From: Calditrichaceae bacterium
GTDB lineage: Bacteria; Calditrichota; Calditrichia; Calditrichales; JBFXGD01
NCBI GenBank assembly: GCA_050178385.1
Contig: JBFXGD010000080.1
Location: 1 to 14,838, forward strand
Direction: 5' to 3'
DNA: 14,838 nucleotides
The notes below the pieces were generated by a model. It did not search any database and had not been told where the DNA came from. It worked only from the letters and a program-made list of their open reading frames with translations. Positions 1 through 14,838 of this stretch are shown one piece after another. Position 1 is the stretch's first letter; the number at the start of each line of letters is the position of its first letter. The position numbers and the translations under genes are program-made.

Positions 1-233
1 ATGATATGGCCGGGAATGTCTGGCAGTGGTGCGGTGATGATTATCCCGATTTACACTATAGATACATGCGAGGCGGTAGCCGTAACAATTATGAATACAA
101 TCTGTTTACATGGGCTCGAAACAGCGCCGGTCCCGACTTCTACAGTATGTATATAGGATTTCGATGCGTCAGGGATGTTCAGAAGACCGAAGACATTGAA
201 TCAAGTCAGACTGAAGAAAATATAGAAAAATAG
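1..233 (+). CDS. C-terminal part of a formylglycine-generating enzyme (FGE/SUMF1) family domain protein, 5'-truncated by the window edge
   Basis: Frame 3 reads DMAGNVWQW...RGGS...AR...IGFRCV, the conserved C-terminal motifs of the FGE-sulfatase domain. The Met at 6 is internal to the DMxGNVWEW motif. Stop TAG at 231-233. Confidence 0.9.
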   Translation, partial: DMAGNVWQWCGDDYPDLHYRYMRGGSRNNYEYNLFTWARNSAGPDFYSMYIGFRCVRDVQKTEDIESSQTEENIEK

Positions 234-238
234 AACGA

Positions 239-1141
239 TTGACAGATATGGACATGCAGAACACTACAAATACATTAAGACAAAAAATCGGGGCCAGGGT
301 AAAATTGTACTGGCCTCTTATAAAAAGCCTGCAGACCGGATTATTGCTTATAACGGGAATTACAGGATATATAAGCGCCCGCTGTCCGATTTCTTCCTTT
401 GAAATCGGGTTTGGGTTGCTTGGCAGTCTCTTTCTTGCCATCAGCGGGAGTACGATTCTGAATATGGTGTATGACCGGGATATCGATTCAAAAATGAATC
501 GGACGGCGCACCGGCCATTGCCCTCAGGCAGATTAGACGCTAAAGAGGCTATGGTGCTTGGTTTGAGTATATCCTTTGCGGGTCTGCTGTGGGCTTTGAT
601 GCTTTCATTTCAATATGCGGCTGTAGTGTTTGCGGGGCTGTTCATCGATGTGGTGATTTATACGATGTGGCTTAAACGAAGAACAGCCTGGTCCATTATC
701 TGGGGTGGAATATCCGGCGGAATGCCTGTTCTTGCAGGCAGGACACTGGGATTGGGAACAGTTGATGGGATAGGTATCTTATTTGCTCTGGCAATACTGT
801 TATGGATCCCGACCCATATAATGACGTTCAGTATGCGGTACCATGATGATTACCAGCGTGCCGACGTACCGACCTTTCCATCCACATACGGGAATAAATA
901 TACCCGTCTGATCATCGCTATTTCAAGCTTGGGAGCGGCGATCGCCATCGGAATGGGCGCCATGGCGATCGGTCTTTCCTGGGGATATTTAAGACTGCTT
1001 GGGATATTATCTATCGGAATTTTGGGTTTATCTCTGGCAAGTGTTTTACGCCCGTCTGAAAAAATTAATTTCGGGCTTTTTAAATACGCGTCGCTTTATA
1101 TGTTAAGCGCCATGCTGCTCGTTATATTTGGCGGAATGTAA
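239..1141 (+). CDS. cyoE: Heme O synthase / protoheme IX farnesyltransferase (UbiA prenyltransferase family)
   Basis: About 300 aa, multi-TM. Motifs NMVYDRDIDSKMNRTAHRPLPSGR, YTMWLKRRT, GGISGGMPVLAG, WIPTH...DDY...VP and FKYASLY match CyoE/CtaB. Start is uncertain (TTG 239, ATG 248 or ATG 254). Confidence 0.92.
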   Translation: MTDMDMQNTTNTLRQKIGARVKLYWPLIKSLQTGLLLITGITGYISARCPISSFEIGFGLLGSLFLAISGSTILNMVYDRDIDSKMNRTAHRPLPSGRLDAKEAMVLGLSISFAGLLWALMLSFQYAAVVFAGLFIDVVIYTMWLKRRTAWSIIWGGISGGMPVLAGRTLGLGTVDGIGILFALAILLWIPTHIMTFSMRYHDDYQRADVPTFPSTYGNKYTRLIIAISSLGAAIAIGMGAMAIGLSWGYLRLLGILSIGILGLSLASVLRPSEKINFGLFKYASLYMLSAMLLVIFGGM

Positions 1142-1247
1142 ATATATGAACGCGGATGGACCGTTGAACAGTTGATCGTCAATTAAGTAATTACGGTTCA
1201 GCCTGAAGCGATTTTTAATAAAAGAGTGAAGAATGAAAGGTAGAATT

Positions 1248-1631
1248 ATGAACGGAAGTGTTGTTCTAAAAAGCCTCGCGGTTCTGGCCATTTTGTTTGG
1301 TGTTACAGCCATTGTGGATGGTTTGCCAATAGTACTCGGGATCAAAAATCCTGATCACCTGGTTCTGACATGGCTGATTTATTATAACCTGACGATGGCT
1401 GTTGTTTCCATTTTTGTCGGATTTGGTTTCTGGCTTAGACATGCTCACGCGATAAATGTGGCGGGATTAGTGGCGGTGGGACATACAATTGTCTGGCTGC
1501 TTATCCTAACCATATTTTCTGATGCGGTAGCTATGAAGAGTGTTATCGGTATGACCGTAAGATCTGTTATATGGATTAGTATTTTTGTCCTGCTCTCAAA
1601 GAAAAAAGAAAGCTGGTTTTCACCGGCGTAA
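1248..1631 (+). CDS. Small integral membrane protein (about 4 TM helices), function unknown
   Basis: Four hydrophobic stretches. Co-directional with its neighbours. AAAGG precedes ATG 1248 (alternative ATG at 1233). Confidence 0.75.
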   Translation: MNGSVVLKSLAVLAILFGVTAIVDGLPIVLGIKNPDHLVLTWLIYYNLTMAVVSIFVGFGFWLRHAHAINVAGLVAVGHTIVWLLILTIFSDAVAMKSVIGMTVRSVIWISIFVLLSKKKESWFSPA

Positions 1632-1681
1632 GTATTATGGCAAGAATTTAATCAAGCAGATCTAAAGCCGTTAGGAATATT

Positions 1682-2281
1682 ATGGCAAGGATGACAACAA
1701 AGGAGAGGAAAAGGCAGATTATCGATCAGGCGATGCAAATAATTCATGATCAGGGATATCCTGCTCTCTCAATTCGAGAACTGGCAAAAAAAGTTGGTAT
1801 ATCAGAACCGGCCATCTACAGACATTTTACAAACAAAGAAGAAATTCTGAATGGAATTCTGGACCGTATGCTCATATTTGGAAATATGTTGAATGAGAAA
1901 CTGGATGAATTTGACACCGCTAAGGAAAGGATCATGCAGCTTATTATGCTTCAACTGAGATTTCTGGAAAATCATCCGGAACTGACCGCGGTGCTGTTTT
2001 ATGACGAAATCTTTGATCCGCAGCCGTCTCTGGGTGAAAAATTACAATTATTTCGGAATTCCAGATTCCTGATTTTGGAAAGTCTTATAAATCAGGCTAA
2101 ATCAGAAGGAACTGTTGTAAATGTCAGGACACAGGATTTGATAGTAGTGATTTTAGGGATCATTAGTATGATTATCCTGGAATGGAGAAGACGAAAATTC
2201 ACATTTTCTCTGGATGACCGGGGTAGGGGGATGATTGACAGTTTAGAAAGACTCATTTTTGTAGACAGTATTGTGAAATAA
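1682..2281 (+). CDS. TetR/AcrR family transcriptional regulator
   Basis: N-terminal HTH signature IIDQAMQIIHDQGYPALSIRELAKKVGISEPAIYRHFTNKEEIL. 199 aa. AGGA RBS at 1673-1676. Confidence 0.95.
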   Translation: MARMTTKERKRQIIDQAMQIIHDQGYPALSIRELAKKVGISEPAIYRHFTNKEEILNGILDRMLIFGNMLNEKLDEFDTAKERIMQLIMLQLRFLENHPELTAVLFYDEIFDPQPSLGEKLQLFRNSRFLILESLINQAKSEGTVVNVRTQDLIVVILGIISMIILEWRRRKFTFSLDDRGRGMIDSLERLIFVDSIVK

Positions 2282-2337
2282 TTATTTTTTCATAATAGTC
2301 CCGTATGGGAATTGTTATTCAAACTAAGGAGTGTGTA

Positions 2338-4626
2338 ATGGTTAATTATTTGAAAGGATTCTACCGAAAGCCTGTCCTTGTGATGACGATCGTAGTAATC
2401 CTTACTGCGCTTTCATTTTGGCAAATGGGCGAACATGCCCGAGTCGAAACGAATCTCGATATGTATATGCCTTCAGAGCATCCCGCATTTATTTATAGCG
2501 ATCAGGCGGAATCGTGGTTCAATATCAAAGATGCTTTTATCTTCGTAGTCGAAAATCCTGATGGTCTGTTTACTTCAGGCACATTGAATAAGATCAAAAC
2601 CATCACGAAAAAATTGCAAAAGATGAGCCAAATCGAAAAGGACAATGTGACAAGTCTGTATACCCTCGATAATATTGTCTCCAGCGATTATGGTATGGAT
2701 GTCAGGCCGTTCTTCACAAAGGTTCCTGAAGATTCGGCGGGTCTGGCAAGCATTCGTGAAGCTGTAACCGGAAATGATATGATCATGGGTAGAATGGTAT
2801 CAAATGACGAGACAGCAACAATTATTGTCGCGGAACTGGAAGGGGATGTTGTATTTGATAAAGCATTATATGATCAAATACAGGAGACAGCAGAAGAATT
2901 TCGCGGTCCTGAAAATATATATTTCGCGGGACGCCCGGTTGTGGAGGGCACATTAGCGCAGCTTGCACCGGAAGATATGAAAAAAATGATTCCGATTGTT
3001 TTGTTGGTAATCGTTCTTGTTCTGTTATTGACATTACGCAGTTTTAAATCTCTAATCGTCACTCTGTTCATCGTTATTCTGAGCACAATTTGGGCATTCG
3101 GATTAATGTCGGCGCTGCAAATTCCCATATACGCGGTATCGACTATGATTCCGGTAATGCTCATCGCCATTGGTGTCGCGTACGCGATTCATTTGTTTAA
3201 CTGTCTTGAATTGTTCCTTAAGGAGAATCCGGGTGCTTCAAAAGAAGAAGCCCTTGATAATATGATCGAAGTGATGTGGAAACCTGTTTTAATGGCAGCA
3301 ACAACCACGGCAATAGGATTTATATCTCTGATTACATCGCAGGTTTGGCCGGTAAAATATTTTGGTCTTTTCACTGCATTTGGTGTACTCATGGCGTTGT
3401 TTCTGTCCATTGCTTTTCTACCGGCAATGCTATATATGGTTGGATTGCCAAAATTGAAGATTAAAGCGGCGAAGACATCGGAAAAAGAAGGTTTGGCAGG
3501 ATGGATCACCAATGCAATTTTAAACAATAGTAAGACAATACTTGTCGCTACAGTTGTCATCATCGTAGTCTCTGCGTTCGGAATGCAGAAAGTATGGATT
3601 GATTCCAGCTTCTTAAGAAATTTTGAGGATGACAGCGAGATTGTAAAGGCGGATCATTTCATAAACAGCCATTTTTCAGGAACGACGCAGTTTAATGTGA
3701 TTTTTGAAGGTGAAGACGATACTTTCAAAAAGCCTGAGGTCTGGAGAAATGTAAATATTCTGCAGGAAAAACTGGAAGCGATTCCGGAAGTGGGCAATAC
3801 CTCCTCTATGGCCGATTATCTGAGAAAAATGCACAAGGTAATGCATGGTGACAGCGTAAAATATGATGTGATTCCTGAATCCCGTGATCTGCTCGCTCAA
3901 TATCTGCTGCTTTATACGATGGCAGGCGATCCCAAAAATCTGGATAAGGTAGTTGATTACAACTACAAAAGAGCCAACCTGACCGTTCAGTTAAAAGGCG
4001 ATAATTCCAAAATTATTCAAAAAACGATTGATCTGATTAATAATAATAAAGATCTATTCCCCGGCATTACGGTCAATTTCGCTGGTTCCGCATATAAAGG
4101 ACTGGTATTTACGGATCTGATTCTCCAGGGTCAAATATCAAGTCTATTGATCTCAATTATCATGGTAGTAATACTTCTGGCTTTTATGTTCAAAAGCTTT
4201 AGCGCGGGACTTATCGGTTCGGTGCCGATTATCATCACATCGATGATCAGTTTTGCCATCATGGGATTTTTAGACATACCACTGGGTGTAACCACAGCGC
4301 TGGCAGCAAGTATCGCGATGGGTATCGGTATCGATTACGCGATACATTTTATTGAGCGCTATAAGATTTTCTCGATGGAAACCGAAGATCGCTTGCTAGT
4401 CGCCATCAAAACTATGGGGCATACCGGACGCGCGATTTTCTTTAACGCTTTAGTGCTTGTTCTTGGTTTCACGGTACTTTTACTTTCAGCTTTTCCTCCG
4501 AATCAGGAACTTGGCGGACTTATTTCACTGAATATGCTTCTGTCGTTCCTATGTACCATTATAGTGATGTTAATTCTCATCCATATAATAAAACCTAAAC
4601 TAATTCCCAAAAAAGGAGATGTGTAA
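2338..4626 (+). CDS. MMPL/RND superfamily transporter permease
   Basis: Two repeats of (1 TM + large periplasmic domain + 5 TM). GIGIDYAIH motif in the second repeat. AAGGAG at 2326-2331 supports ATG 2338 over 2305. Confidence 0.92.
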   Translation: MVNYLKGFYRKPVLVMTIVVILTALSFWQMGEHARVETNLDMYMPSEHPAFIYSDQAESWFNIKDAFIFVVENPDGLFTSGTLNKIKTITKKLQKMSQIEKDNVTSLYTLDNIVSSDYGMDVRPFFTKVPEDSAGLASIREAVTGNDMIMGRMVSNDETATIIVAELEGDVVFDKALYDQIQETAEEFRGPENIYFAGRPVVEGTLAQLAPEDMKKMIPIVLLVIVLVLLLTLRSFKSLIVTLFIVILSTIWAFGLMSALQIPIYAVSTMIPVMLIAIGVAYAIHLFNCLELFLKENPGASKEEALDNMIEVMWKPVLMAATTTAIGFISLITSQVWPVKYFGLFTAFGVLMALFLSIAFLPAMLYMVGLPKLKIKAAKTSEKEGLAGWITNAILNNSKTILVATVVIIVVSAFGMQKVWIDSSFLRNFEDDSEIVKADHFINSHFSGTTQFNVIFEGEDDTFKKPEVWRNVNILQEKLEAIPEVGNTSSMADYLRKMHKVMHGDSVKYDVIPESRDLLAQYLLLYTMAGDPKNLDKVVDYNYKRANLTVQLKGDNSKIIQKTIDLINNNKDLFPGITVNFAGSAYKGLVFTDLILQGQISSLLISIIMVVILLAFMFKSFSAGLIGSVPIIITSMISFAIMGFLDIPLGVTTALAASIAMGIGIDYAIHFIERYKIFSMETEDRLLVAIKTMGHTGRAIFFNALVLVLGFTVLLLSAFPPNQELGGLISLNMLLSFLCTIIVMLILIHIIKPKLIPKKGDV

Positions 4627-5408
4627 TGAAGAAATTCTTGTTAACTCTAATGATTGGAATCCTGCTATCAGGCATCGATATTGTGTCTGCGCAGGAATCA
4701 TTAACCGCCTTGCAGATTATAGAAAATAACTATAATCGTGAAGATGGTAATGATGAAACATCAGATTTGATCATGACCCTGATCAATAAATCAGGCGATA
4801 CTCGTGTCCGTAAAGTAAGACAATTCACGAAAGAATATGGCGGCGACGAAAAAACGGTTGTATTTTTTCTGGCTCCGGCCGATGTAATGGGCACTTCTTT
4901 CATGAGTTGGACTTATGCTGATGAGAGCAAAGACGATGATCAATGGATTTACCTGCCGGCCTTAAAAAGAATTAAGAGGATTTCATCAGAAAGCAAAAGT
5001 GATTATTTCATGGGTTCAGACTTTACCTATGATGATATCGGCGATCGCTTGCCGAATGAGGACACCCATAAGTTACTTCGTAGCGAGACTGTTGACGGTC
5101 AGGATTGCTATGTAGTTGAAAGTATTCCGAAAGAAAAAGATTCAATCTATTCAAAAACGATCAGCTGGGTGATCAAATCAAATTGGATATACCTAAAAAG
5201 AGAATATTATGATGAAGAAGGTGATTTACTGAAGATTGATCACAGCAAGAAAATTGAACAAGTTGACGGTGTGTGGACAGTGATGCACAGAGTGATGGAA
5301 AATGTTCAGTCAATTCACAAAACAGATCTCGTGTTCAGCAATTACAGATACAACATCAATACTCCCGATGATATGTTTTCTGAACGTACACTCAAAAGAG
5401 GACTGTAA
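4626..5408 (+). CDS. Periplasmic LolA-like (outer membrane lipoprotein-sorting family) protein
   Basis: Sec signal peptide (MKKFLL...VSA|Q). Motifs FLAPADVMGT, DDQWIYLPALKRIKRI and FMGSDFTYDD are typical of LolA-like partners of MMPL proteins. TAATG stop/start overlap with the transporter and AAGGAG RBS. Confidence 0.88.
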   Translation: MKKFLLTLMIGILLSGIDIVSAQESLTALQIIENNYNREDGNDETSDLIMTLINKSGDTRVRKVRQFTKEYGGDEKTVVFFLAPADVMGTSFMSWTYADESKDDDQWIYLPALKRIKRISSESKSDYFMGSDFTYDDIGDRLPNEDTHKLLRSETVDGQDCYVVESIPKEKDSIYSKTISWVIKSNWIYLKREYYDEEGDLLKIDHSKKIEQVDGVWTVMHRVMENVQSIHKTDLVFSNYRYNINTPDDMFSERTLKRGL

Positions 5409-5409
5409 A

Positions 5410-6687
5410 ATGAAAAAGTACATTTTAATCATAACGATGATTATTGGTCTGTTTCAGCAGAGTTTCGCCCTTGGGATTGATATTCATGGATACGTTCGTA
5501 ATTATTTGGGTGCTTTGACTGAACAGGATGGTGAATATTCGGTAACGCAAAACACACTGGATCTGGAGTTTTCACATTCAGCAAAAAACTCTGCATTTTT
5601 TATTAATCCTTATGTAAATCACGATAAAGAAGGTGAGCTAAAGCTTGACCTGCGCGAAGCTTATGTGGACTTGATGTGGGATAACGCGGATCTTAGAGTC
5701 GGTAAGCAGCAAATTATCTGGGGAAAAGCCGACGGCGTTTTTATCACGGATATTATTTCACCAAAAAACTTAAGTGAGTTTTTATTACCTGACTTCGAGG
5801 AAATTCGTATTGGTGTCAACGCGGTTAAATTTGATTACTATTTAGGTGATCAAACCTTTGAATTAGTCTGGCTGCCGGAGTTTCAGCCGACTATTTTTGC
5901 TGAGCAGGGTTCCATCTGGGCTCCAAAAATGCCAAATCCTGCTGAAATGATGTCATTGCCGATGGTACCGCCGATTACTTATGACTATTCGAAATCAGAA
6001 GTACAGGGTTCACTGGAAAACAGCGAATTAGCTGGTAAGTATTCATTTCTGTCATCGACGATAGATTTTGAACTTATGGGTGCCTATTTATGGGATGACA
6101 ATCCTTCAATACACCTGTTGAAACAGATGGATCCGAACACACACCAGCTAACCGGAATTACGGTACGTCCCGAGTATCACAGACTGACAATGGGCGGCGG
6201 AAGCTTTGGTGTCACCCTGGCAGGTGTTGTTATCCGTGGTGAAGGCGCGTATTATACGGGAAGAAATTATACCGCTATGGATAATCCCGCGGAAGGGAAG
6301 ACATATGAAGAAGGAGTTGTAGAAAAAGACTATGCGCACTATCTGTTAGGATTTGACTACAATGTTTGGGGTGTTGATATCAGCGGCCAGTATATTCAGG
6401 AAAGAATACTGGATTATGAAGAAGAAATGGTGCAGGATGAAGTTCAAAATACGGCAACCTTCCTGATGGCTAAAGACTACCTTAACGAAACTCTCATGCT
6501 GGAATTATTCACCTACTATGGTTTTGACAATGAGGATGGTTTGATCCGCCCTAAACTGACTTATGATATCGCAGACGGATTTGAACTTCTTATCGGCGCG
6601 AACATATTTATCGGCGAAGGCGTCGGAATGTTCGGCATGTATGAGAAAAACGATATGGTCTATACAAAACTGAAATACTCTTTTTAG
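5410..6687 (+). CDS. Putative outer-membrane beta-barrel protein (DUF1302-like)
   Basis: Signal peptide MKKYIL...SFA|L. LREAYVD...LRVGKQQIIWGKADG motif, amphipathic beta-strand pattern and C-terminal KLKYSF aromatic terminus. GAGGA RBS supports ATG 5410 rather than 5302. Confidence 0.82.
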   Translation: MKKYILIITMIIGLFQQSFALGIDIHGYVRNYLGALTEQDGEYSVTQNTLDLEFSHSAKNSAFFINPYVNHDKEGELKLDLREAYVDLMWDNADLRVGKQQIIWGKADGVFITDIISPKNLSEFLLPDFEEIRIGVNAVKFDYYLGDQTFELVWLPEFQPTIFAEQGSIWAPKMPNPAEMMSLPMVPPITYDYSKSEVQGSLENSELAGKYSFLSSTIDFELMGAYLWDDNPSIHLLKQMDPNTHQLTGITVRPEYHRLTMGGGSFGVTLAGVVIRGEGAYYTGRNYTAMDNPAEGKTYEEGVVEKDYAHYLLGFDYNVWGVDISGQYIQERILDYEEEMVQDEVQNTATFLMAKDYLNETLMLELFTYYGFDNEDGLIRPKLTYDIADGFELLIGANIFIGEGVGMFGMYEKNDMVYTKLKYSF

Positions 6688-6713
6688 TATACCATTAGTT
6701 TATGGCAATAAAG

Positions 6714-6751
6714 AAGCCGGTTGGGGAATAAAGTACCCGCCGGCTTTTTTT
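6714..6751 (+). terminator. Rho-independent terminator
   Basis: AAGCCGG (6714-6720) pairs with CCGGCTT (6740-6746), extended inward by GGG/CCC. T7 run at 6745-6751. Starts 27 nt after the beta-barrel stop. Confidence 0.85.
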
Positions 6752-6942: not shown

Positions 6943-9189
6943 ATGAAATGGTATAAAAAGGATCCCCTTTCAAAGATCGCCATAAAATATAAGCTGCCGC
7001 TTAGCTTTGTTCTTTTGTCTCTGATTGTTTTCGGATTTGGAGGTTATTTTGTAGTCAATTCAGTATACAGCGGCCTGGATAGAGAGATCCAAATCCGCCT
7101 GAAGAGCGAATCCATGGCTCAGGCGGTGATATTTGACAATAAACTGGAATCCCTGAAGCGCAGAGCCGAAGATTTTGCATCAGACGGGTTTATCCGCTCG
7201 AATATGAAAATTCTGCTCGACCGGCATTCGGATCGTGATAAAAAAATCATTCTTCAAAATGCCCATCATGCTCTAAAAAAACATTTAATAGCGAACAAGC
7301 TTCCTCTGGTGAATGATTTTTCTGCCATCGAAATTTACAATAATGAAAAAATACGTCTGACAGGAACCACCGATACTATCCATTTTATTCAAAAATATAT
7401 CGATCAGGCATTGATAGAAGACTCAAAAAGATTTAGTCAAATAATACCGCCGTCCAAACCGGGATCATTTCCAACCGCCGCCATCGTGACAGATATCTGG
7501 AATCTGAATCATTCTGAAAAACTGGGTTTTCTCGTTTGTGTCTTAAATTTAGAAGCCGTCGTCAAAGATATGTCCGGTGAATACGATTATGGGCTGACCG
7601 ATACACAGATTGAGAAGTATCTGACAGTGATTGATCAGAATGGGGTGTGTTTGGAAGTGCCGTGGCGGTATCTCGATGGTAATAATAATGCTGCCGCAAG
7701 TAAGGGAATTAAATTAAGCGAAAAATCCCGGTCAACGCCGATAGCGTTTCATAACGGCCGTCATATTTGCTCAAACGGCAAAGAAATGTTTGGGCAAAGC
7801 TTTCCGCTGGATAGTAATACCTGGAGAGTGATGATTGAACTCAACTCAGCTCAGGCGTTGCAGCCGATAGGTGTCCTTGAGAGCAAGGTTCTGGGTATCG
7901 CGTTTATTGTTGCCCTGACAGCGCTGATCCTGCTGTACTTTCCTGTTCAGTTTGTCATTAGACCGCTTGGGGAACTCCAAAGAATGGCTTACAGGATCAA
8001 GGAAGGAGATTTTTCAAAACGCATAAAATATCAGTCGGAAGATGAAATCGGTAATTTGGCACGAACCTTCAACATGATGGCGGAAGCGATACAAGAGCGA
8101 ACAATGAGTCTTGAACGCACAGCGCATGATCTGCAGAAGAGAGAAGTCGAACTTCGGATCCAGCACGACCGATTGAACACAGTAGTTCATTCATTGACCG
8201 ATGGGCTTGTTCTCCTGAATTCCAGAGGGGATGTTGTACTCTCCAATAAAGCGTCGGCTCCGCTGATAAATTTTCTGGAAAGCGCGGAGGCGGTAAACAG
8301 AATCCGAAAATGTAAAAACGGACTTAGCAAAGATAATAATTGTCTCCATTGTTTGATGGATGTGTCAAAAAAAACATCCTGTGTGATTGTGATTGAAAAC
8401 GCCACGTATGAAATTATTTCGACAAAATTACCGGCGGTGGACGGATCTACAAGCAAAGTTTTGGTTTCCAGGGATATTACGGAGCGTGAAAGGCTTGGTG
8501 AAAGGCAGGCGCATCAGGACCGTTTATCTGTTCTTGGAAAGACCGCGGCAGTTGTAGCGCATGAAATGAATAGTCCGCTTGCGGCGATCTCCATGTATAA
8601 TCAGATGATGGAATCGGAGCTAAGGGAGAACTCGAAATTTCATGAGCATGTTGACGTAATTAAAAGAAATACGCAGACTTGCCAGCGGATCATAAACGAG
8701 CTTCTGAACTATGCAAAACTTCCACAGCCGCGCATAGAAGAAATCAATATCCGCCAGATTCTTGTGAATGTCATACGGTTTCTAAGGCCTTTAAACAAAG
8801 AAAAGCAGACGACCATTGAACAGGATTTTCAGGATAAGGACCAGCCGTTTTTAGGTGATGCTACCCAAATCCAGCAGGTTTTTGTCAATCTTTTACTAAA
8901 TGCCTTACAGGCGGTACCGGAAGGAACAGGTAAAATTAAACTTTCAACGTTTCATAATAATAGCGGATTGATCGTTGATGTGGAAGATAACGGACCCGGT
9001 GTCGATATAAAGCATAAACGAGAAATATTTGAACCCTTCTTTACAACAAAAAACACCGGTGGAACAGGTCTGGGTTTATCGACGGCGAGAAGCATCATAA
9101 ATGCACACAACGGTGATCTCGAACTGTTCGAATCGATTCAGGGGAAAACCATTTTTCGCGTTCTTATACCGTTTCAGGCAAAAGCATAA
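6943..9189 (+). CDS. Membrane sensor histidine kinase (2 TM, ~280-aa periplasmic domain, HAMP, Cys-rich PAS-like region, HisKA, HATPase_c; NtrB-like core)
   Basis: HAMP (RPLGELQRMAYRIKEGDFSKRI...DEIGNLARTFNMM), H-box AHEMNSPL, N-box QVFVNLLLNA, DNGPG, IFEPFFTTK, GTGLGL. Confidence 0.95.
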   Translation: MKWYKKDPLSKIAIKYKLPLSFVLLSLIVFGFGGYFVVNSVYSGLDREIQIRLKSESMAQAVIFDNKLESLKRRAEDFASDGFIRSNMKILLDRHSDRDKKIILQNAHHALKKHLIANKLPLVNDFSAIEIYNNEKIRLTGTTDTIHFIQKYIDQALIEDSKRFSQIIPPSKPGSFPTAAIVTDIWNLNHSEKLGFLVCVLNLEAVVKDMSGEYDYGLTDTQIEKYLTVIDQNGVCLEVPWRYLDGNNNAAASKGIKLSEKSRSTPIAFHNGRHICSNGKEMFGQSFPLDSNTWRVMIELNSAQALQPIGVLESKVLGIAFIVALTALILLYFPVQFVIRPLGELQRMAYRIKEGDFSKRIKYQSEDEIGNLARTFNMMAEAIQERTMSLERTAHDLQKREVELRIQHDRLNTVVHSLTDGLVLLNSRGDVVLSNKASAPLINFLESAEAVNRIRKCKNGLSKDNNCLHCLMDVSKKTSCVIVIENATYEIISTKLPAVDGSTSKVLVSRDITERERLGERQAHQDRLSVLGKTAAVVAHEMNSPLAAISMYNQMMESELRENSKFHEHVDVIKRNTQTCQRIINELLNYAKLPQPRIEEINIRQILVNVIRFLRPLNKEKQTTIEQDFQDKDQPFLGDATQIQQVFVNLLLNALQAVPEGTGKIKLSTFHNNSGLIVDVEDNGPGVDIKHKREIFEPFFTTKNTGGTGLGLSTARSIINAHNGDLELFESIQGKTIFRVLIPFQAKA

Positions 9190-9239
9190 TATGAAGGCTG
9201 AAAACCTCACTATTAATCCGGGAAGGAAATAAACAGTAT

Positions 9240-10664
9240 ATGGAAATGGATGCCAAAAAATTTTATGATCTTAGCCAGCTTAAAATACTGGTGGTTGATG
9301 ATCAGGAAGATGTCAGAAGAGGGCTACAGCGGCTCATTGGTACTTTGGGGTGTGACGTAGAAGAGAAGGCATCCGCTGAAGAAGCTCTCTCCGCCCTGCA
9401 ACAGGATAGCTATGATATCGTTTTTACAGATCTGAAGATGGACAAGATGTCCGGGGTTGATTTGCTGCATGAAATTAACGCCAACTGGTCTGAGGTGGCA
9501 GTCGTTCTCATAACCGGGTACGGGACAATTGAGCTGGCGGTTTCCTGCCTGCAGAACGGCGCCTCTCATTTTGTTACCAAACCATTCGACAATAACGAAA
9601 TCCTTTCATTTGTAGAGCGCACAGGGTATAAAATTCTCTCACGGAGGATTGTTAAAAAGAATCTTGATAAATACAGGTCGGAAAATATCATCGCGGTATC
9701 TAAAATCATGCGTGATGTTCTCGACCTCGTTGATCAGGTGGCGCCCAGCAAAGTACCGGTATTGATAGAAGGCGCAAGTGGCACGGGGAAAGAATTAATC
9801 GCCCATGAAATACATAATCGGAGTCTTGTGAAAGGAAAACCATTTCTGGCCATCAATTGTATCGCTTTACCGGACACGCTTCTTGAATCTGAACTATTCG
9901 GATACAAAAAAGGCGCGTTCACAGGCGCCCATAAAGACTCCAAAGGATTGTTTGAACAAGTCAAAGGCGGCACAATCTTTTTGGATGAGGTTTCTTCCAT
10001 GTCGCTGATGTTTCAGGGGAAGCTATTGCGGGTTCTGCAGGAGAAACAAATCAGGCCTCTTGGTGGGGATGATGTCATCCCGGTTGATTTTCGTCTTATT
10101 GCCGCAAGTAACAATAATCTTGAAGAAATGGTTCAGAAGGGGCAATTCCGGGAGGATCTGTTTTACAGATTAAAAGTCATGAAAATAGAAATCCCGCTGT
10201 TAAAGGACCGGCCGGAATGTATCCCTGTTCTCGCTGAGCATTTTTTTAGAAAATCGGTGAATGAGTATTTCGAGGGCGGTGAATTAATTCCTGAACTATC
10301 TCCCGCAGCGGTAAGCGCATTAAAGAAACATGAATGGAAAGGAAATGTAAGAGAGCTTGAAAATACCATTCAGAGAGCGCTTATTGTCTGTAAAGGCGAT
10401 AAAATATTGCCATCTCACCTGGGATTGTCAAAAAGCGAGGAAAACGGTTATGGATTATTCGATGACACGACGACCTATGAAGAAGGAAAACAAAAAGCGA
10501 TTGAAGAGTTTCAACGCACGTATATACAAAATTCTCTTATGAGAACAAAAGGAAATATATCCCGCGCGGCTGATTTGTGCGGTTTGACAAGGGCAGCGTT
10601 TCAGCGCATTATGAGGAAACTGAATATTGACAGCTCAGATGCAAGGGATAATTCGTCTGAATAA
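9240..10664 (+). CDS. Sigma54-dependent response regulator (NtrC family: receiver, AAA+, Fis-type HTH)
   Basis: Receiver VVDD...TDLKM...ITG...KPF. Walker A GASGTGKE, intact ESELFGYKKGAFTGA, Walker B FLDEV, FREDLFYRL, WKGNVRELEN. C-terminal HTH GNISRAADLCGLTR. Confidence 0.96.
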   Translation: MEMDAKKFYDLSQLKILVVDDQEDVRRGLQRLIGTLGCDVEEKASAEEALSALQQDSYDIVFTDLKMDKMSGVDLLHEINANWSEVAVVLITGYGTIELAVSCLQNGASHFVTKPFDNNEILSFVERTGYKILSRRIVKKNLDKYRSENIIAVSKIMRDVLDLVDQVAPSKVPVLIEGASGTGKELIAHEIHNRSLVKGKPFLAINCIALPDTLLESELFGYKKGAFTGAHKDSKGLFEQVKGGTIFLDEVSSMSLMFQGKLLRVLQEKQIRPLGGDDVIPVDFRLIAASNNNLEEMVQKGQFREDLFYRLKVMKIEIPLLKDRPECIPVLAEHFFRKSVNEYFEGGELIPELSPAAVSALKKHEWKGNVRELENTIQRALIVCKGDKILPSHLGLSKSEENGYGLFDDTTTYEEGKQKAIEEFQRTYIQNSLMRTKGNISRAADLCGLTRAAFQRIMRKLNIDSSDARDNSSE

Positions 10665-10669
10665 TTCCG

Positions 10670-10689
10670 GTGCATAGGGTTGTATGCAC
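10670..10689. promoter_or_regulatory. Palindrome 1, GTGCATA-N6-TATGCAC, putative upstream activator sequence for the enhancer-binding protein
   Basis: Perfect 7-bp inverted repeat (GTGCATA gggttg TATGCAC), repeated 70 bp downstream, about 235 bp upstream of the predicted sigma54 start. Confidence 0.75.
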
Positions 10690-10739
10690 GATTTAAGTTA
10701 CAGTTTTTTATGCGATTATGCGGAAAATATCAAAATCGG

Positions 10740-10759
10740 GTGCATAGTCGTATATGCAC
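10740..10759. promoter_or_regulatory. Palindrome 2, GTGCATA-N6-TATGCAC, putative upstream activator sequence
   Basis: GTGCATA gtcgta TATGCAC. Arms and spacer length are identical to site 1 with a mostly different spacer sequence. About 165 bp upstream of the predicted start. Confidence 0.75.
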
Positions 10760-10888
10760 TTTCTCTGAATTTTATCATATTTTGTATCAATATAATTTCT
10801 ACTTCCAAAACAAAATCATTCTATAAACTCCAGATTTATAGTGATTTACAGTTTCTCTCTATTCAATTGAGATGTCGTAGTAGTATTA

Positions 10889-10904
10889 TGGCACAATACT
10901 TGTA
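10889..10904 (+). promoter_or_regulatory. Sigma54 (-24/-12) promoter for narC-narG
   Basis: TGGCAC-AATAC-TTGTA versus consensus TGGCAC-N5-TTGCW. Spacing is correct, with one deviation (GT instead of GC at -12). Lies downstream of a sigma54 activator gene and 65 nt before the narC start. Confidence 0.75.
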
Positions 10905-10917
10905 ATAGTGATCACAA
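10900..10917. promoter_or_regulatory. Near-perfect palindrome TTGTAAT-N4-ATCACAA (CRP/FNR-family or Rex-like operator)
   Basis: One mismatch from TTGTGAT-N4-ATCACAA. Contains TGTAA-N6-TCACA (cf. TGTGA-N6-TCACA). Overlaps the -12 element and the predicted +1. Confidence 0.5.
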
Positions 10918-10968
10918 CATCACAAACTCATAAATGAGACTGTCCACACAAAAATTATTGAGGTATCA

Positions 10969-11829
10969 ATGATTTTGGCAATCCTAAAACAAAATGATTG
11001 CAGAAGGGCTGTTCTACTCCTCACAGCTTTTCTTTTTGTTTCTGTAAATCACATCAATGCTCAGACTCCCGACGAATATTTCAAGCAAAACTGTGTCAGT
11101 TGTCATACGGTCGGCGGCGGTCGTTTGACCGGGCCTGATTTAAAGAATGTCAATGACAGGCAGTCACGTGATTGGCTGGTTAACTGGCTGATGGATCCAC
11201 AGGGAATTCTGGCCGGCGGAGACCCATACGCGTTAACGCTGCAAAAAGAAGCGCGCGGCGCCGTTATGACCAATTCACCTGGTATGACGAAAGTAATGGC
11301 CAATGCACTTCTCGATTTGATGGCAGCTGAGTCAAAGCTGGAAAAATCACAGTTTGCGGGAATGCAGATTGCTGACCGCCCCCTGCTTCCATCGGATATC
11401 GTTGAGGGTGAAGCGCTTTTTACCGGAAAAAAGCGGCTGTTAAACGGAGGCCCGGCCTGTATAGGATGTCATACCGTAAACAGTATGACCGGATTTGGCG
11501 GTGGGCTTCTCGGGTTGAATCTGACCCGGGCATTCGCCAGGCTTGGCGGGCAAAAAGCGCTTTCTACCTGGCTCGTGGCGCCGCCCGGACTCACGATGAA
11601 TCCAATCTTTAAAACCAAACCCATTGCTGACACTGAAATTTTACCCATCGTCGCATTTCTTAAAAATGAAACTGAGATGGATAAGCCGCTGAACACAGCC
11701 TCGATGGTCAATTTTTTACTTTTTGGAATAGTCGGGGCGGTAATCCTTTTGGTTGTTTTTGATTTGCTGTGGAATAAACGTTTTCGCGGTGTACGAAAGG
11801 CAATGGTTCAGCAGAAAAAACTCACTTGA
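10969..11829 (+). CDS. narC: Membrane-anchored periplasmic dihaem cytochrome c, NarC-like
   Basis: Signal peptide (INA|Q). Two CxxCH motifs (CVSCH 11092-11106, CIGCH 11458-11472), each with a downstream Met as candidate distal ligand. C-terminal TM helix followed by a basic tail. Directly upstream of narG. Confidence 0.85.
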   Translation: MILAILKQNDCRRAVLLLTAFLFVSVNHINAQTPDEYFKQNCVSCHTVGGGRLTGPDLKNVNDRQSRDWLVNWLMDPQGILAGGDPYALTLQKEARGAVMTNSPGMTKVMANALLDLMAAESKLEKSQFAGMQIADRPLLPSDIVEGEALFTGKKRLLNGGPACIGCHTVNSMTGFGGGLLGLNLTRAFARLGGQKALSTWLVAPPGLTMNPIFKTKPIADTEILPIVAFLKNETEMDKPLNTASMVNFLLFGIVGAVILLVVFDLLWNKRFRGVRKAMVQQKKLT

Positions 11830-11916
11830 GAATTCAGGAATAGATATCTGGATCATTTCGAATAATCTAAACATGTTTTGGTGATATGCATTGTTGCAAA
11901 AATTAAGGAATACATA

Positions 11917-14838
11917 ATGAGCAGGAAATCGTGGATTAGAGACGATGTTGTTCCCCAACAAAGAACCTGGGAACAATTCTACAGGAATCGCTGGCAGTAC
12001 GATAAAATTGTCCGCAGCACCCACGGTGTGAACTGTACGGGGAGCTGCACATGGAATATTCATGTAAAAGACGGGATTGTCACCTGGGAAATGCAGGGAC
12101 TTGATTATCCCACCCTCGAGCATGGTTTACCCCCCTATGAACCACGTGGTTGTCAGCGAGGTATTTCTTATTCCTGGTATTTGTACAGTCCTCTGCGTGT
12201 AAAATATCCTTATATCCGCGGCGCGATGCTGGAATTTTGGAAAAAGGCTAAATCGGAATACGATGATCCGGTTGACGCGTGGAAATCGATGGTGGAAGAT
12301 CCGGAAAAACGGCAGCGCTGGCAGCAGGCGCGCGGAAAAGGTGGATTCCGCAGGACGGATTGGGATACTGTTTTGGAGATTATGGCCGCCTCCAATATAT
12401 ATACCATTAAAAAACACGGTCCCGACAGGATTGCCGGTTTCTCACCAATTCCCGCCATGTCGATGATCAGTTATGCGGCAGGCGCGAGAATGCTGCAGTT
12501 GATGGGCGGTCTGGCTCTTTCATTTTACGACTGGTACTGTGATCTGCCAAGCGCCTCACCTGAAACATGGGGTGAGCAGACCGATGTTCAGGAATCAGCG
12601 GACTGGTATAATGCCAAGTTGCTGGCGGTCATGGGATCCAATCTGAATATGACCCGCACGCCGGATTGTCATTTTGCCGCCGAATCGCGCCATAACGGGA
12701 CCAAAATGTATGTTTTCGCGCCTGATTTCAATCAGGTCGCAAAATACGCGGATGAGTGGATGTCCATAAACGCCGGGCAGGACGGCGCCTGGTGGATGGC
12801 TGTTAATCATGTTCTGCTAAAGGAATTCCACCACGAGAAACAGACTCCATATTTTATAGAGTATGTAAAAAAATACACCGATGCCCCACTACTTGTAGAG
12901 TTGCATAAGGAAAATGATCATTTCGAAGCGGGACAGCTTCTCAGAGCCGGTCAGCTAAAGAAATATGCTGATCAGGAGAACGGGGAGTGGAAATTTCTCA
13001 TGTGGGATGATTCGGCATCAGCTCCTAAAATGCCAATGGGCAGTGTCGGTCACCGATGGGGGAAGGAGAAAGGGAAATGGAATCTTCAATTGAAGGACGG
13101 CGCGGACGGGAGCAAAATTAATCCCATTCTTACTTTCTTGAATAACAAAGATGAAGAAGTTCTGGTGCGCCTCGATGATTTTGGGGAAGCCAATAATATT
13201 GTCAGGGGCGTTCCCGTCAAAAAAATAGAAACAGAAAGCGGTACAAAGATCGTTACGACGGTCTATGATTTATTGATGGCTCAGTATGGCGTGCCCAGGG
13301 GATTAAAGGGAGAATATCCGGCTGATTATGATGATGAAAACGCCCCTTACACACCCGCGTGGTCTGAAAAATATACCGGATTGTCCCGTGATAATCTTAT
13401 CAAATTCGCCCGCGAGTGGGGAAGTACGGCCGAACACACGAACGGAAAGTGTACAATCATTATCGGCGCGGGTATTAATCACTGGTATCATGGAAATTTA
13501 ATGTACCGGGCAGGTATTCACGCGCTTATGTATACGGGTTGTATCGGAGTCAACGGCGGTGGTTTGGCGCATTATGTGGGACAGGAAAAGCTTGCTCCCG
13601 GCGAATCATGGGGAACTATCGCGTTTGCCAAAGACTGGTATGGCGCGTCACGACTCCAGAACGCGCCGAGCTGGCATTATGTTAATTCGGATCAATGGCG
13701 TTATGAAAAAGCTTTCACGGATTATCATTCTGTCCCGCAAAATCAGAAAGAAGGATCTCTGGCGAAAGGGCATACAATGGATGTCCAGATTCGGGCTGTT
13801 AAAAACGGCTGGATGCCTTTCTATCCGCAGTTTGAAAAAAGTCCGATTGAACTTGCAAAGGAAGCGATCAAAGCCACCGGTTCGAATGATGAAAAAGATG
13901 TCATAAAATATGTTGTTGATCTATTAAAAAACAAAAAACTGAAATTTTCCGTTGAAGATCCGGATGCTCCCGAAAACTGGCCGCGTGTCTGGTATATTTG
14001 GAGAGGTAACGCGCTGATGGCCAGTGCGAAAGGGCACGAATATTTTCTGAAGCATTACCTTGGTACGCATAACAATGCAATCGGTGACAGTGATTTTGCA
14101 AAGGGACAGGTCGAAGATGTGACCTGGCATGACAAGCTGCCAACCGGTAAGATGGATCTGATTGTTGATCTGAATTTTAGAATGGACACTTCGGCACTAT
14201 ACTCAGACATCGTTTTACCAGCGGCGACCTGGTATGAAAAGGCGGACCTGAATTCGACGGATATGCATAGTTTTATTCATCCGCTTTCTAAGGCGGTACC
14301 CCCCTGTTGGGAATCAAAAAGCGACTGGGAAATCTTCAAGCAAATTTCTAAAAAATTCTCAGAATTATCTCAGAAACATTTTCCGGATCATGTACCTGAT
14401 CTTGTAACAAAGCCTCTGGCTCATGACACCCCCGCGGAAATCGCGCAGACACAGATCAGGGACTGGACCAGCGGTGAAGTGGAAGCCATTCCGGGAAAAA
14501 CCATGCCGGGTATGCAGCTGGTGTACCGTGATTATAAAAATATGTATAATCAGTATATCTCCTTGGGTAAAATTGCCCGCGATAAAGGTATCGGCGCGCA
14601 TGGAACTCACTACGAGATAGATGATTTCTATGACGCCATGCTGGCAACGCATCCGACGGAAAGCTGGGGGGGAAACACATATCCTTCATTGGATGAAGAT
14701 GAAGATACCTGCAATGTCATACTGCACCTTGCTACCGTTACAAACGGTGAATTATCATATCGTTCCTACAAGAATCTTGAAGAAAAAGTCGGATTACCGT
14801 TAGCTGATCTGGTGGAGAAATCCAGAGATGTGAGAGTG
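11917..14838 (+). CDS. narG: Respiratory nitrate reductase alpha subunit (NarG/NxrA group, type II Mo-bisPGD enzyme), 3'-truncated by the window edge
   Basis: Manual translation of frame 1 gives 974 codons with no stop. [10 protein letters not shown]...[12 protein letters not shown]...PRGCQRG (FS0 ligands H, C, C, C), [20 protein letters not shown] (Mo-ligating Asp at 12541), WGEQTD, HYVGQEK, DLNFRM...[21 protein letters not shown]. No Tat leader. Confidence 0.97.

Follow-up and report, generated by a model that had tools for sequence, protein, structure and literature searches.

How is the nitrate reductase operon of a Calditrichaceae bacterium switched on? The 14,838-nucleotide stretch of DNA analysed here (the window; it is one contig, C80, of a 3.89 Mb draft genome that is 94% complete) carries in unbroken succession the genes of a membrane sensor kinase and its partner activator, two palindromes, a -24/-12 site, narC and narG. 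We propose that kinase, activator, palindromes and -24/-12 site form a dedicated sigma54 two-component switch for nar, and for this core circuit, signals excluded, we estimate a probability of about 0.85. Judged by its sequence and distribution, the sigma54 kinase-activator-nar module is real, being both conserved and specific.

Layout of the proposed switch in the window

The genes of the kinase and activator, narC, narG and the promoter-like site lie on the forward strand. An earlier note on this DNA had claimed that a kinase, an NtrC-type activator with GAFTGA, a -24/-12 site and narC-narG are contiguous, and each was found in its place. The kinase gene (6943..9189) is followed by that of the NtrC-type sigma54 activator (9240..10664), in which domain and motif searches identified a receiver (D64), an AAA+ domain (Sigma54_activat, E 2.6e-67) and a helix-turn-helix domain (HTH_8) with the helix CGLTRAAFQRI; by domain search the protein is not a LuxR-type response regulator. 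GAFTGA occupies residues 225-230 (9912-9929), and it or a close variant is kept among the orthologous activators. The recognition helix, G[LMI]TRAA[LFV]Q, is shared by the members of the activator family but is present in only one of the 25 sigma54-activator paralogues of the source genome, the window's own activator counted in. The genome also contains rpoN (TIGR02395, above cut-off).

Two palindromes, GTGCATA-N6-TATGCAC, lie 70 bp apart at 10670..10689 (distal) and 10740..10759 (proximal), and on the strength of pattern search and conservation they are the predicted activator sites. The two matches compare with 0.04 expected, none of 200 shuffles reached two, and no further copy is found in the 3.89 Mb genome with one mismatch allowed. 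They had been described as identical, which is correct for the 7-bp arms but not for the whole elements, because the 6-bp spacers differ at four positions. A wider regulon in the source genome was considered and set aside: there are 100 palindrome-like sites at two mismatches, nine elsewhere lie near a -24/-12-like site, and none of these passes a stricter consensus.

The sigma54 promoter-like site TGGCAC-N5-TTGT spans 10889..10903, and the conventional distance from it places the predicted +1 at 10915, the very position near which the transcription start had been expected. Taken alone, the motif is at chance in the window (two matches with at most one mismatch, 1.4 expected), and its -12 element, TTGT, has T in place of the C of canonical TTGC. 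Genome-wide, TGGCAY-N5-TTG is intergenic at 31 of 64 sites, as against 2/35 with N4 and 1/52 with N6 spacing. When the sites are sorted by their -12 form, the intergenic share in the source genome is 11/21 for TTGT, 12/21 for TTGA, 8/9 for TTGC and 0/13 for TTGG; a less strict -12 element may suffice for the RpoN of this lineage. The reported lack of NarX and FNR signatures was borne out, since there is no PilJ/NarX-type sensor domain with a P-box in the kinase, nor was one found in the 94%-complete genome, and no FNR box occurs within two mismatches between 10515 and 11947, upstream of narC included. A sigma70-like site was likewise absent from the forward strand between 10665 and 10969.

Behind the promoter, narC (10969..11829) encodes a dihaem cytochrome c, recognised by two CxxCH motifs and by homology to the cytochrome c gene product encoded immediately before narG in Thermus (29.6% identity, E 9e-6). 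The 5' part of narG (11917..14838) continues on contig C32, and the part in the window already scores 1192 bits against TIGR01580, for which the cut-off is 1084.

Conservation of the module and its motifs

A search with the kinase sensor region returned 95 proteins, 80 genome loci and 34 metagenome loci, the closest kinase match (83%) being from Calditrichaceae. The kinase-activator-nar module recurs in Calditrichota, KSB1, Marinimicrobia (Neomarinimicrobiota) and Planctomycetota, and the matches to the sensor region also include the FCB group and some further lineages. Of the 80 genome loci, 43 (L029-L071) hold the best kinase matches and 37 hold weaker dCache relatives. Activator, narC and narG are present in the stretch examined at 33 of the 43 best loci; four end too early, at four more (L033, L034, L049, L055) nar is farther off or on a different contig and has the palindrome ahead of it, and for the last two no narG was found. 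No narC was seen at any of the 31 annotated weaker dCache relatives, six further weak loci being outside the annotation. Orthologous kinase/regulator pairs, which the earlier note had put forward as a check on its idea, are tied to narC-narG and keep both motifs.

The distribution across genomes points the same way. Among 61 relatives, the kinase occurs in eight, a close narC in the same eight and narG in 13; the four genomes with a distant narC-narG, and two narG genes that have no narC, show no palindrome upstream, and their best -24/-12 scores are 7.1-11.6. In 301 planctomycete genomes the kinase was found in 26 and narG in 41, including all 26 kinase genomes, and within one planctomycete order both are present in 4 of 21 genomes, matching. 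Since the genomes are drafts and related, these co-occurrence counts are descriptive.

The motifs were followed at the 42 loci that have an activator as well as narC, a set to which the window and two of its close relatives belong; the palindrome pattern was derived from the window, and up to two mismatches were allowed. The palindrome is present in 37/42 loci (shuffles: mean 0.53, maximum 3), the -24/-12 site, by weights set post hoc, in 40/42 (shuffles: mean 9, maximum 16), and the two in this order in 33/42 (shuffle mean 0.07). Paired palindromes are mostly 64-74 bp apart across loci. A hold-out sample was then scored with the fixed pattern; it comprised 20 of the 26 kinase-positive planctomycete genomes and all 15 kinase-negative ones (16 loci), less four loci seen before and six with incomplete upstream DNA. 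Of 13 kinase-positive loci, 12 have the palindrome upstream of narC; of 13 kinase-negative loci, none has. For the kinase-negative genomes we rely on the sensor search, which found the kinase in 0/15 and recovered both positive controls, because the activator-tail search, with no close match in the same 15 genomes, missed one of its two controls.

In a NarG tree of 330 residues, six kinase-negative NarG nest among the kinase-positive ones, so that the palindrome appears to follow the kinase and not the NarG lineage; one kinase-positive NarG falls into another subclade. A first tree had joined all kinase-linked NarG in one clade (support 0.925), a grouping overturned by wider sampling, itself of 330 residues only.

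The palindromes also stay with narC when other parts move. They do so despite 1.5-6 kb inserted behind the activator, in genome G006, whose kinase gene is on a different contig from the activator and narC, these two being about 22 kb apart, and in G061, with its kinase gene at a distance of about 24 kb. A second predicted target is a NarK-family transporter, found with its own palindrome at five planctomycete loci and with a -24/-12 site scoring at least 12 at four of the five; these transporters reach 300-305 bits, below the 312 cut-off. The circuit had been called self-contained, which is true of the source genome, but in some relatives its parts are dispersed and there is a second promoter, that of narK.

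Several observations concern relatives of the module. At four kinase-negative planctomycete narC promoters (L187, L188, L190, L195) there are -24/-12-like sites with scores up to 14.0, and at L187 and L188 a different, divergent GAFTGA activator stands upstream of narC; other sigma54 routes to nar may exist. Loci L070 and L123 carry a kinase-activator relative with neither the four cysteines described below nor an unaltered recognition helix, and no narG was found with it. A variant palindrome, TGGATAC-N4-GTATCCA, occurs at L123:8071, and downstream of the pair is a gene which, from the first residues of its protein, is presumably hemN-like; the pair is possibly a re-purposed copy. A second, distant narK-narGH cluster with neither narC nor palindrome was seen at L161 (G001:C20) and L162 (G032:C56), genome G001 carrying both nar cluster types. 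The Nitrospirae locus L074 has a weak relative of the sensor domain and, some 5-7 kb from it, genes distantly similar to NarG/NarH (25-36% identity).

The sensor kinase

What could such a switch respond to? By domain search, structure model and Pfam the 748-residue kinase reads transmembrane helix, dCache-like region, transmembrane helix, HAMP, PAS with four cysteines, HisKA and HATPase, of which HAMP, HisKA and HATPase_c were recognised by profile; the H-box AHEMN is at residue 539. The dCache-like sensor and the four-cysteine PAS had both been overlooked in the earlier note.

The periplasmic sensor region covers about residues 38-315 (7054..7887). The dCache_1 Pfam family matches 9 of 33 orthologues, the atlas neighbours of the region are Cache families, and the secondary structure of the kinase model (predicted local distance difference test score, pLDDT, 75.5) fits a double Cache; together these indicate that the region is a double Cache domain. 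A PDB sequence search with the sensor alignment gave a single match at E 0.73, and Foldseek with the full-length kinase model returned kinase cores alone. In the orthologue alignment the conserved motif RRAEDFASDGFIR (residues 73-85, 7159..7197) contains the invariant R74 and R85; written as RRxEDFxSDGFIR, it keeps both arginines in 111/111 distinct strings matched by the search pattern and is a candidate anion-binding or dimer-interface site. A periplasmic HxGxHxC motif (residues 270-276, 7750-7770), present in 38 of the 95 orthologues, falls in the second Cache subdomain and may bind a metal or haem.

The cytoplasmic PAS domain (8143..8517) was delimited by alignments and fold search, residues 401-525 having a PAS fold in the model and in the fold searches. 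Its cysteines C457, C467, C470 and C480 (codons at 8311, 8341, 8350 and 8380), spaced C-X9-C-X2-C-X9-C, are invariant in 33/33 and in 47/47 aligned kinases, the larger alignment omitting three near-duplicate loci as well as L070 and L123, the two copies that lack the cysteines. The pattern is present in 91 of the 95 proteins matched by the sensor region, and among the best 150 profile hits it is present in 68 of 77 proteins of up to 900 residues and in none of 73 longer multi-PAS proteins. The four cysteines are predicted to be a metal or iron-sulphur (Fe-S) site. The PAS profile matches PDB 9WEX, the Fe-S PAS of Bacillus licheniformis NreB, at E 2.6e-4, which is a lead only, since cysteine-free PAS domains score equally or higher. 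In this match C457 and C467 align on two NreB ligands, C66 and C78, which belong to the corresponding segment of the PAS domain (numbering counted against PMC13478379). Fold searches with the PAS model found generic PAS/LOV domains (best Z 9.3, root-mean-square deviation 2.7, 104 aligned), and a PDB search with the PAS region as a single sequence gave weak matches only.

Proposed mechanism and its alternatives

Domain content, motifs and co-occurrence were read from the sequence; the steps that follow are modelled on the NtrC family. The kinase would autophosphorylate on H540 and pass the phosphate to D64 of the activator, dimers of which would occupy the TGCATA-N6-TATGCA sites, located roughly 165 and 235 bp before +1. 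On oligomerising, the activator would reach the sigma54 polymerase at 10889-10903 through a DNA loop and bring about promoter opening, with a start near 10915. Opening would serve narCGHJI-narK and probably also the closely packed alternative complex III genes described below.

The signals are more weakly inferred. Because the predicted regulon consists entirely of nitrate genes and the arginines are invariant, nitrate is our choice of outer ligand, and that the dCache-like domain reads it is about an even proposition. Slightly favoured is an oxygen- or redox-labile Fe-S cluster in the four-cysteine PAS, which we prefer to zinc or a disulfide because of the NreB alignment and the anaerobic target. 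With both, the kinase alone would do the job of NarX plus FNR, or of NreA plus NreB. The complete picture, an undescribed and widespread nar system in which one kinase integrates nitrate, through an arginine-lined dCache domain with no kinship to NarX, with oxygen or redox state, through a new kind of Fe-S PAS with four cysteines, and in which the activator co-induces nitrate reductase, transporter and alternative complex III, is tentative and in our estimate rather less likely than not.

A number of points weigh against the switch or its proposed signals. The weights and threshold for the -24/-12 site were chosen after the loci had been inspected, and scores of at least 11.5 also occur in 7 of the 13 kinase-negative promoters, the site discriminating weakly in GC-rich DNA. 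No IHF consensus (up to one mismatch) lies between palindromes and promoter, and nar could be under additional control, since the genome encodes two regulators of Crp/Fnr type and has an Rrf2 gene. Two kinase relatives occur with no narG found (G062, lacking the four cysteines, and G065, with a broken kinase), and 15 of the 41 planctomycete narG genomes are without the kinase, so this type of NarG can do without the kinase. The module is co-inherited, the distances among kinases being correlated with those among NarG proteins (Mantel r 0.72), and the loci are therefore not independent. As for the cysteines, the PAS domains of WalK, SrrB and DcuS match the kinase profile better than that of NreB, and 9WEX is absent from the matches listed in the PAS-model fold searches.

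The same circuit could run on a different sensing chemistry, with the cysteines as a structural zinc site or disulfide switch and the periplasmic domain reading nitrite, an organic acid or a partner protein; this alternative, which is compatible with the core circuit, has a little under an even chance. The C-x-CxxC-x-C pattern is frequent in zinc sites, dCache ligands are diverse, and in sequence the sensor domain is not like any solved structure (best E 0.73). Moreover, the cysteine spacing is unlike the NreB motifs CX2CX11C and CX2CX11CX2C given in the accessible text of PMC13478379. Yet two of the cysteines do align with C66 and C78, Fe-S ligands of NreB, the two targets predicted for the switch are both nitrate genes, and R74 and R85 are unchanged in all 111 distinct motif strings.

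It is improbable, in our estimate, that the activator binds the palindromes while nar is expressed mainly from a housekeeping promoter under Crp/Fnr or Rrf2, the sigma54 site being secondary or vestigial. The -12 element is indeed non-canonical (TTGT), the genome has Crp/Fnr proteins with an E-x-x-S-R helix as well as the Rrf2 gene, and in Geobacter nar is a predicted target of HcpR (accessible text of PMC1274295), but the promoter has neither an FNR box nor a sigma70-like site, the GG-N10-G spacing persists in lineages whose GC content ranges from 26 to 83%, the activators retain GAFTGA or a close variant, and TTGT sites are enriched intergenically in the source genome. Least probable by far, with hardly any weight in our estimate, is that the kinase-activator pair is a mere co-inherited neighbour whose palindromes are RNA hairpins (kinase-activator terminators) or chance. 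The first palindrome, 6 bp past the activator stop codon, was flagged as terminator-like, and kinase and NarG trees are congruent; against this, the palindromes conserve sequence beyond pairing, remain at narC after the 1.5-6 kb insertions or with kinase and activator dispersed (G006, G061), and vanish where the kinase is absent.

If the dedicated switch is true, a sigma54 route joins the known controls of NarGHI, in lineages known here only from metagenome-assembled genomes. Kinase, activator, binding motif, promoter and regulon are defined, which makes it feasible to reconstruct the system in a laboratory host. Two new candidate sensors come with the kinase, a non-NarX nitrate-binding dCache and a four-cysteine PAS, and the palindrome would let sequence alone tell which nar operons depend on the switch.

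Downstream operon and neighbouring genes

Contig C32 continues with the rest of narG, narH, narJ, narI, a narK-family gene, actA-F, rrf2 and a qNor-like gene. NarG, narH and narI are above curated cut-offs, with narJ and the dihaem narC also present; in alternative complex III, ActD was identified by Pfam and the five other genes by domain content and order. No intergenic gap between narG and rrf2 exceeds 65 bp, which makes a single long transcript from narG to rrf2 plausible. Alternative complex III genes lie close behind narI/narK at C32:5215-15594 (L010), L025, L027, L028, L181 and L182, a linkage seen in both Calditrichota and Planctomycetota; alternative complex III, nar and NarC may form one nitrate-induced respiratory unit.

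Upstream of the kinase gene, an inverted repeat followed by a T run (6710..6750, forward strand, from a sequence scan) is a putative terminator that likely separates it from the preceding operon. The genes at 239-6687 (a haem o synthase-like gene, a 132-residue membrane protein, then TetR, MMPL/RND, LolA-like and DUF1302 genes) are retained solely in the closest relatives and apparently have no relation to the switch. Window positions 1-181 match the start of contig C25 (96.7%), and positions 14595-14838 (244 bp) overlap the start of C32 (98.4%); these matches at both assembly breaks reflect repeats or strain variation.

Comparison with known systems

Is the switch, then, a new kind of system? 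The idea of a distinct RpoN-dependent nar system stands in so far as the module is conserved and specific and rpoN is present, but its logic has precedent in PcrPSR and NrfSR, and AioXSR is reportedly a further precedent for the same regulatory logic. The comparisons below draw on the accessible parts of the cited papers. A 2021 review lists FNR, NarXL, NarL/DevR, NreABC and ResDE for nar, and its accessible text contains no occurrence of sigma54, RpoN or NtrC (PMC8139620); a review of nitrate-sensing kinases covers the NarX/NarQ types (PMC8199190). The genome-wide sigma54 survey PMC12316311 has no narG entry in its accessible text and 11 supplement files, whose long tables are possibly incomplete, and no RpoN-nar link appears in the accessible parts of PMC6446978 and PMC2700814. 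We found no publication describing a sigma54 switch for NarGHI in a search that mostly left subscription literature aside.

Among systems that control nar, Thermus narCGHJIK has the same order of narC, narG, narH, narJ, narI and transporter, with a homologous NarC, but divergent GAF and Crp/Fnr genes (DnrS/DnrT) upstream in place of a kinase-activator pair. NreB is a soluble kinase and NreC a LuxR-type, housekeeping-sigma regulator, whereas the kinase here has two transmembrane helices, HAMP and a sigma54 activator as partner. In NreABC, NreA reads nitrate separately and the cysteine spacing differs, and in our kinase the Fe-S cluster is a prediction. What is shared with staphylococcal NreABC and B. 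licheniformis NreB is a cysteine-bearing PAS kinase linked to narGHJI and a nitrate transporter (PMC8139620, PMC13478379). NarXL with FNR likewise places narGHJI and narK under two-component control (PMC8139620, PMC8199190), but the P-box/PilJ sensor, NarL-type regulator and FNR box are all missing here.

The closest parallels in output are sigma54 systems with other targets. In Azospira suillum PS, PcrPSR and RpoN are required for perchlorate reduction, pcrPSR and rpoN mutants being unable to reduce perchlorate (PMC3884062). There, too, an adjacent membrane kinase and receiver-AAA-HTH activator are combined with a conserved RpoN motif and a related molybdoenzyme respiratory operon as the proposed target; that target, however, is a periplasmic perchlorate reductase (pcrABCD) and not NarCGHJI, and PcrS, which has no PAS, needs PcrP, whereas here the four-cysteine PAS is within the kinase. 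No open reading frame for a PcrP-like auxiliary membrane PAS protein is present between 6688 and 10969. NrfS-NrfR of Desulfovibrio is a sigma54-dependent two-component system that responds to nitrogen oxyanions, with nrf regulated and nap predicted (PMC5701242); compared by description, it is alike in type but targets nrfHA and nap, not nar. OrpR of Desulfovibrio vulgaris couples Fe-S PAS redox sensing to sigma54 activation, but is a one-component regulator with three cysteines and orp gene targets (PMC8359166). The switch described here resembles PcrPSR and NrfSR in its output and perhaps NreAB in its input, and is a member of none of them.

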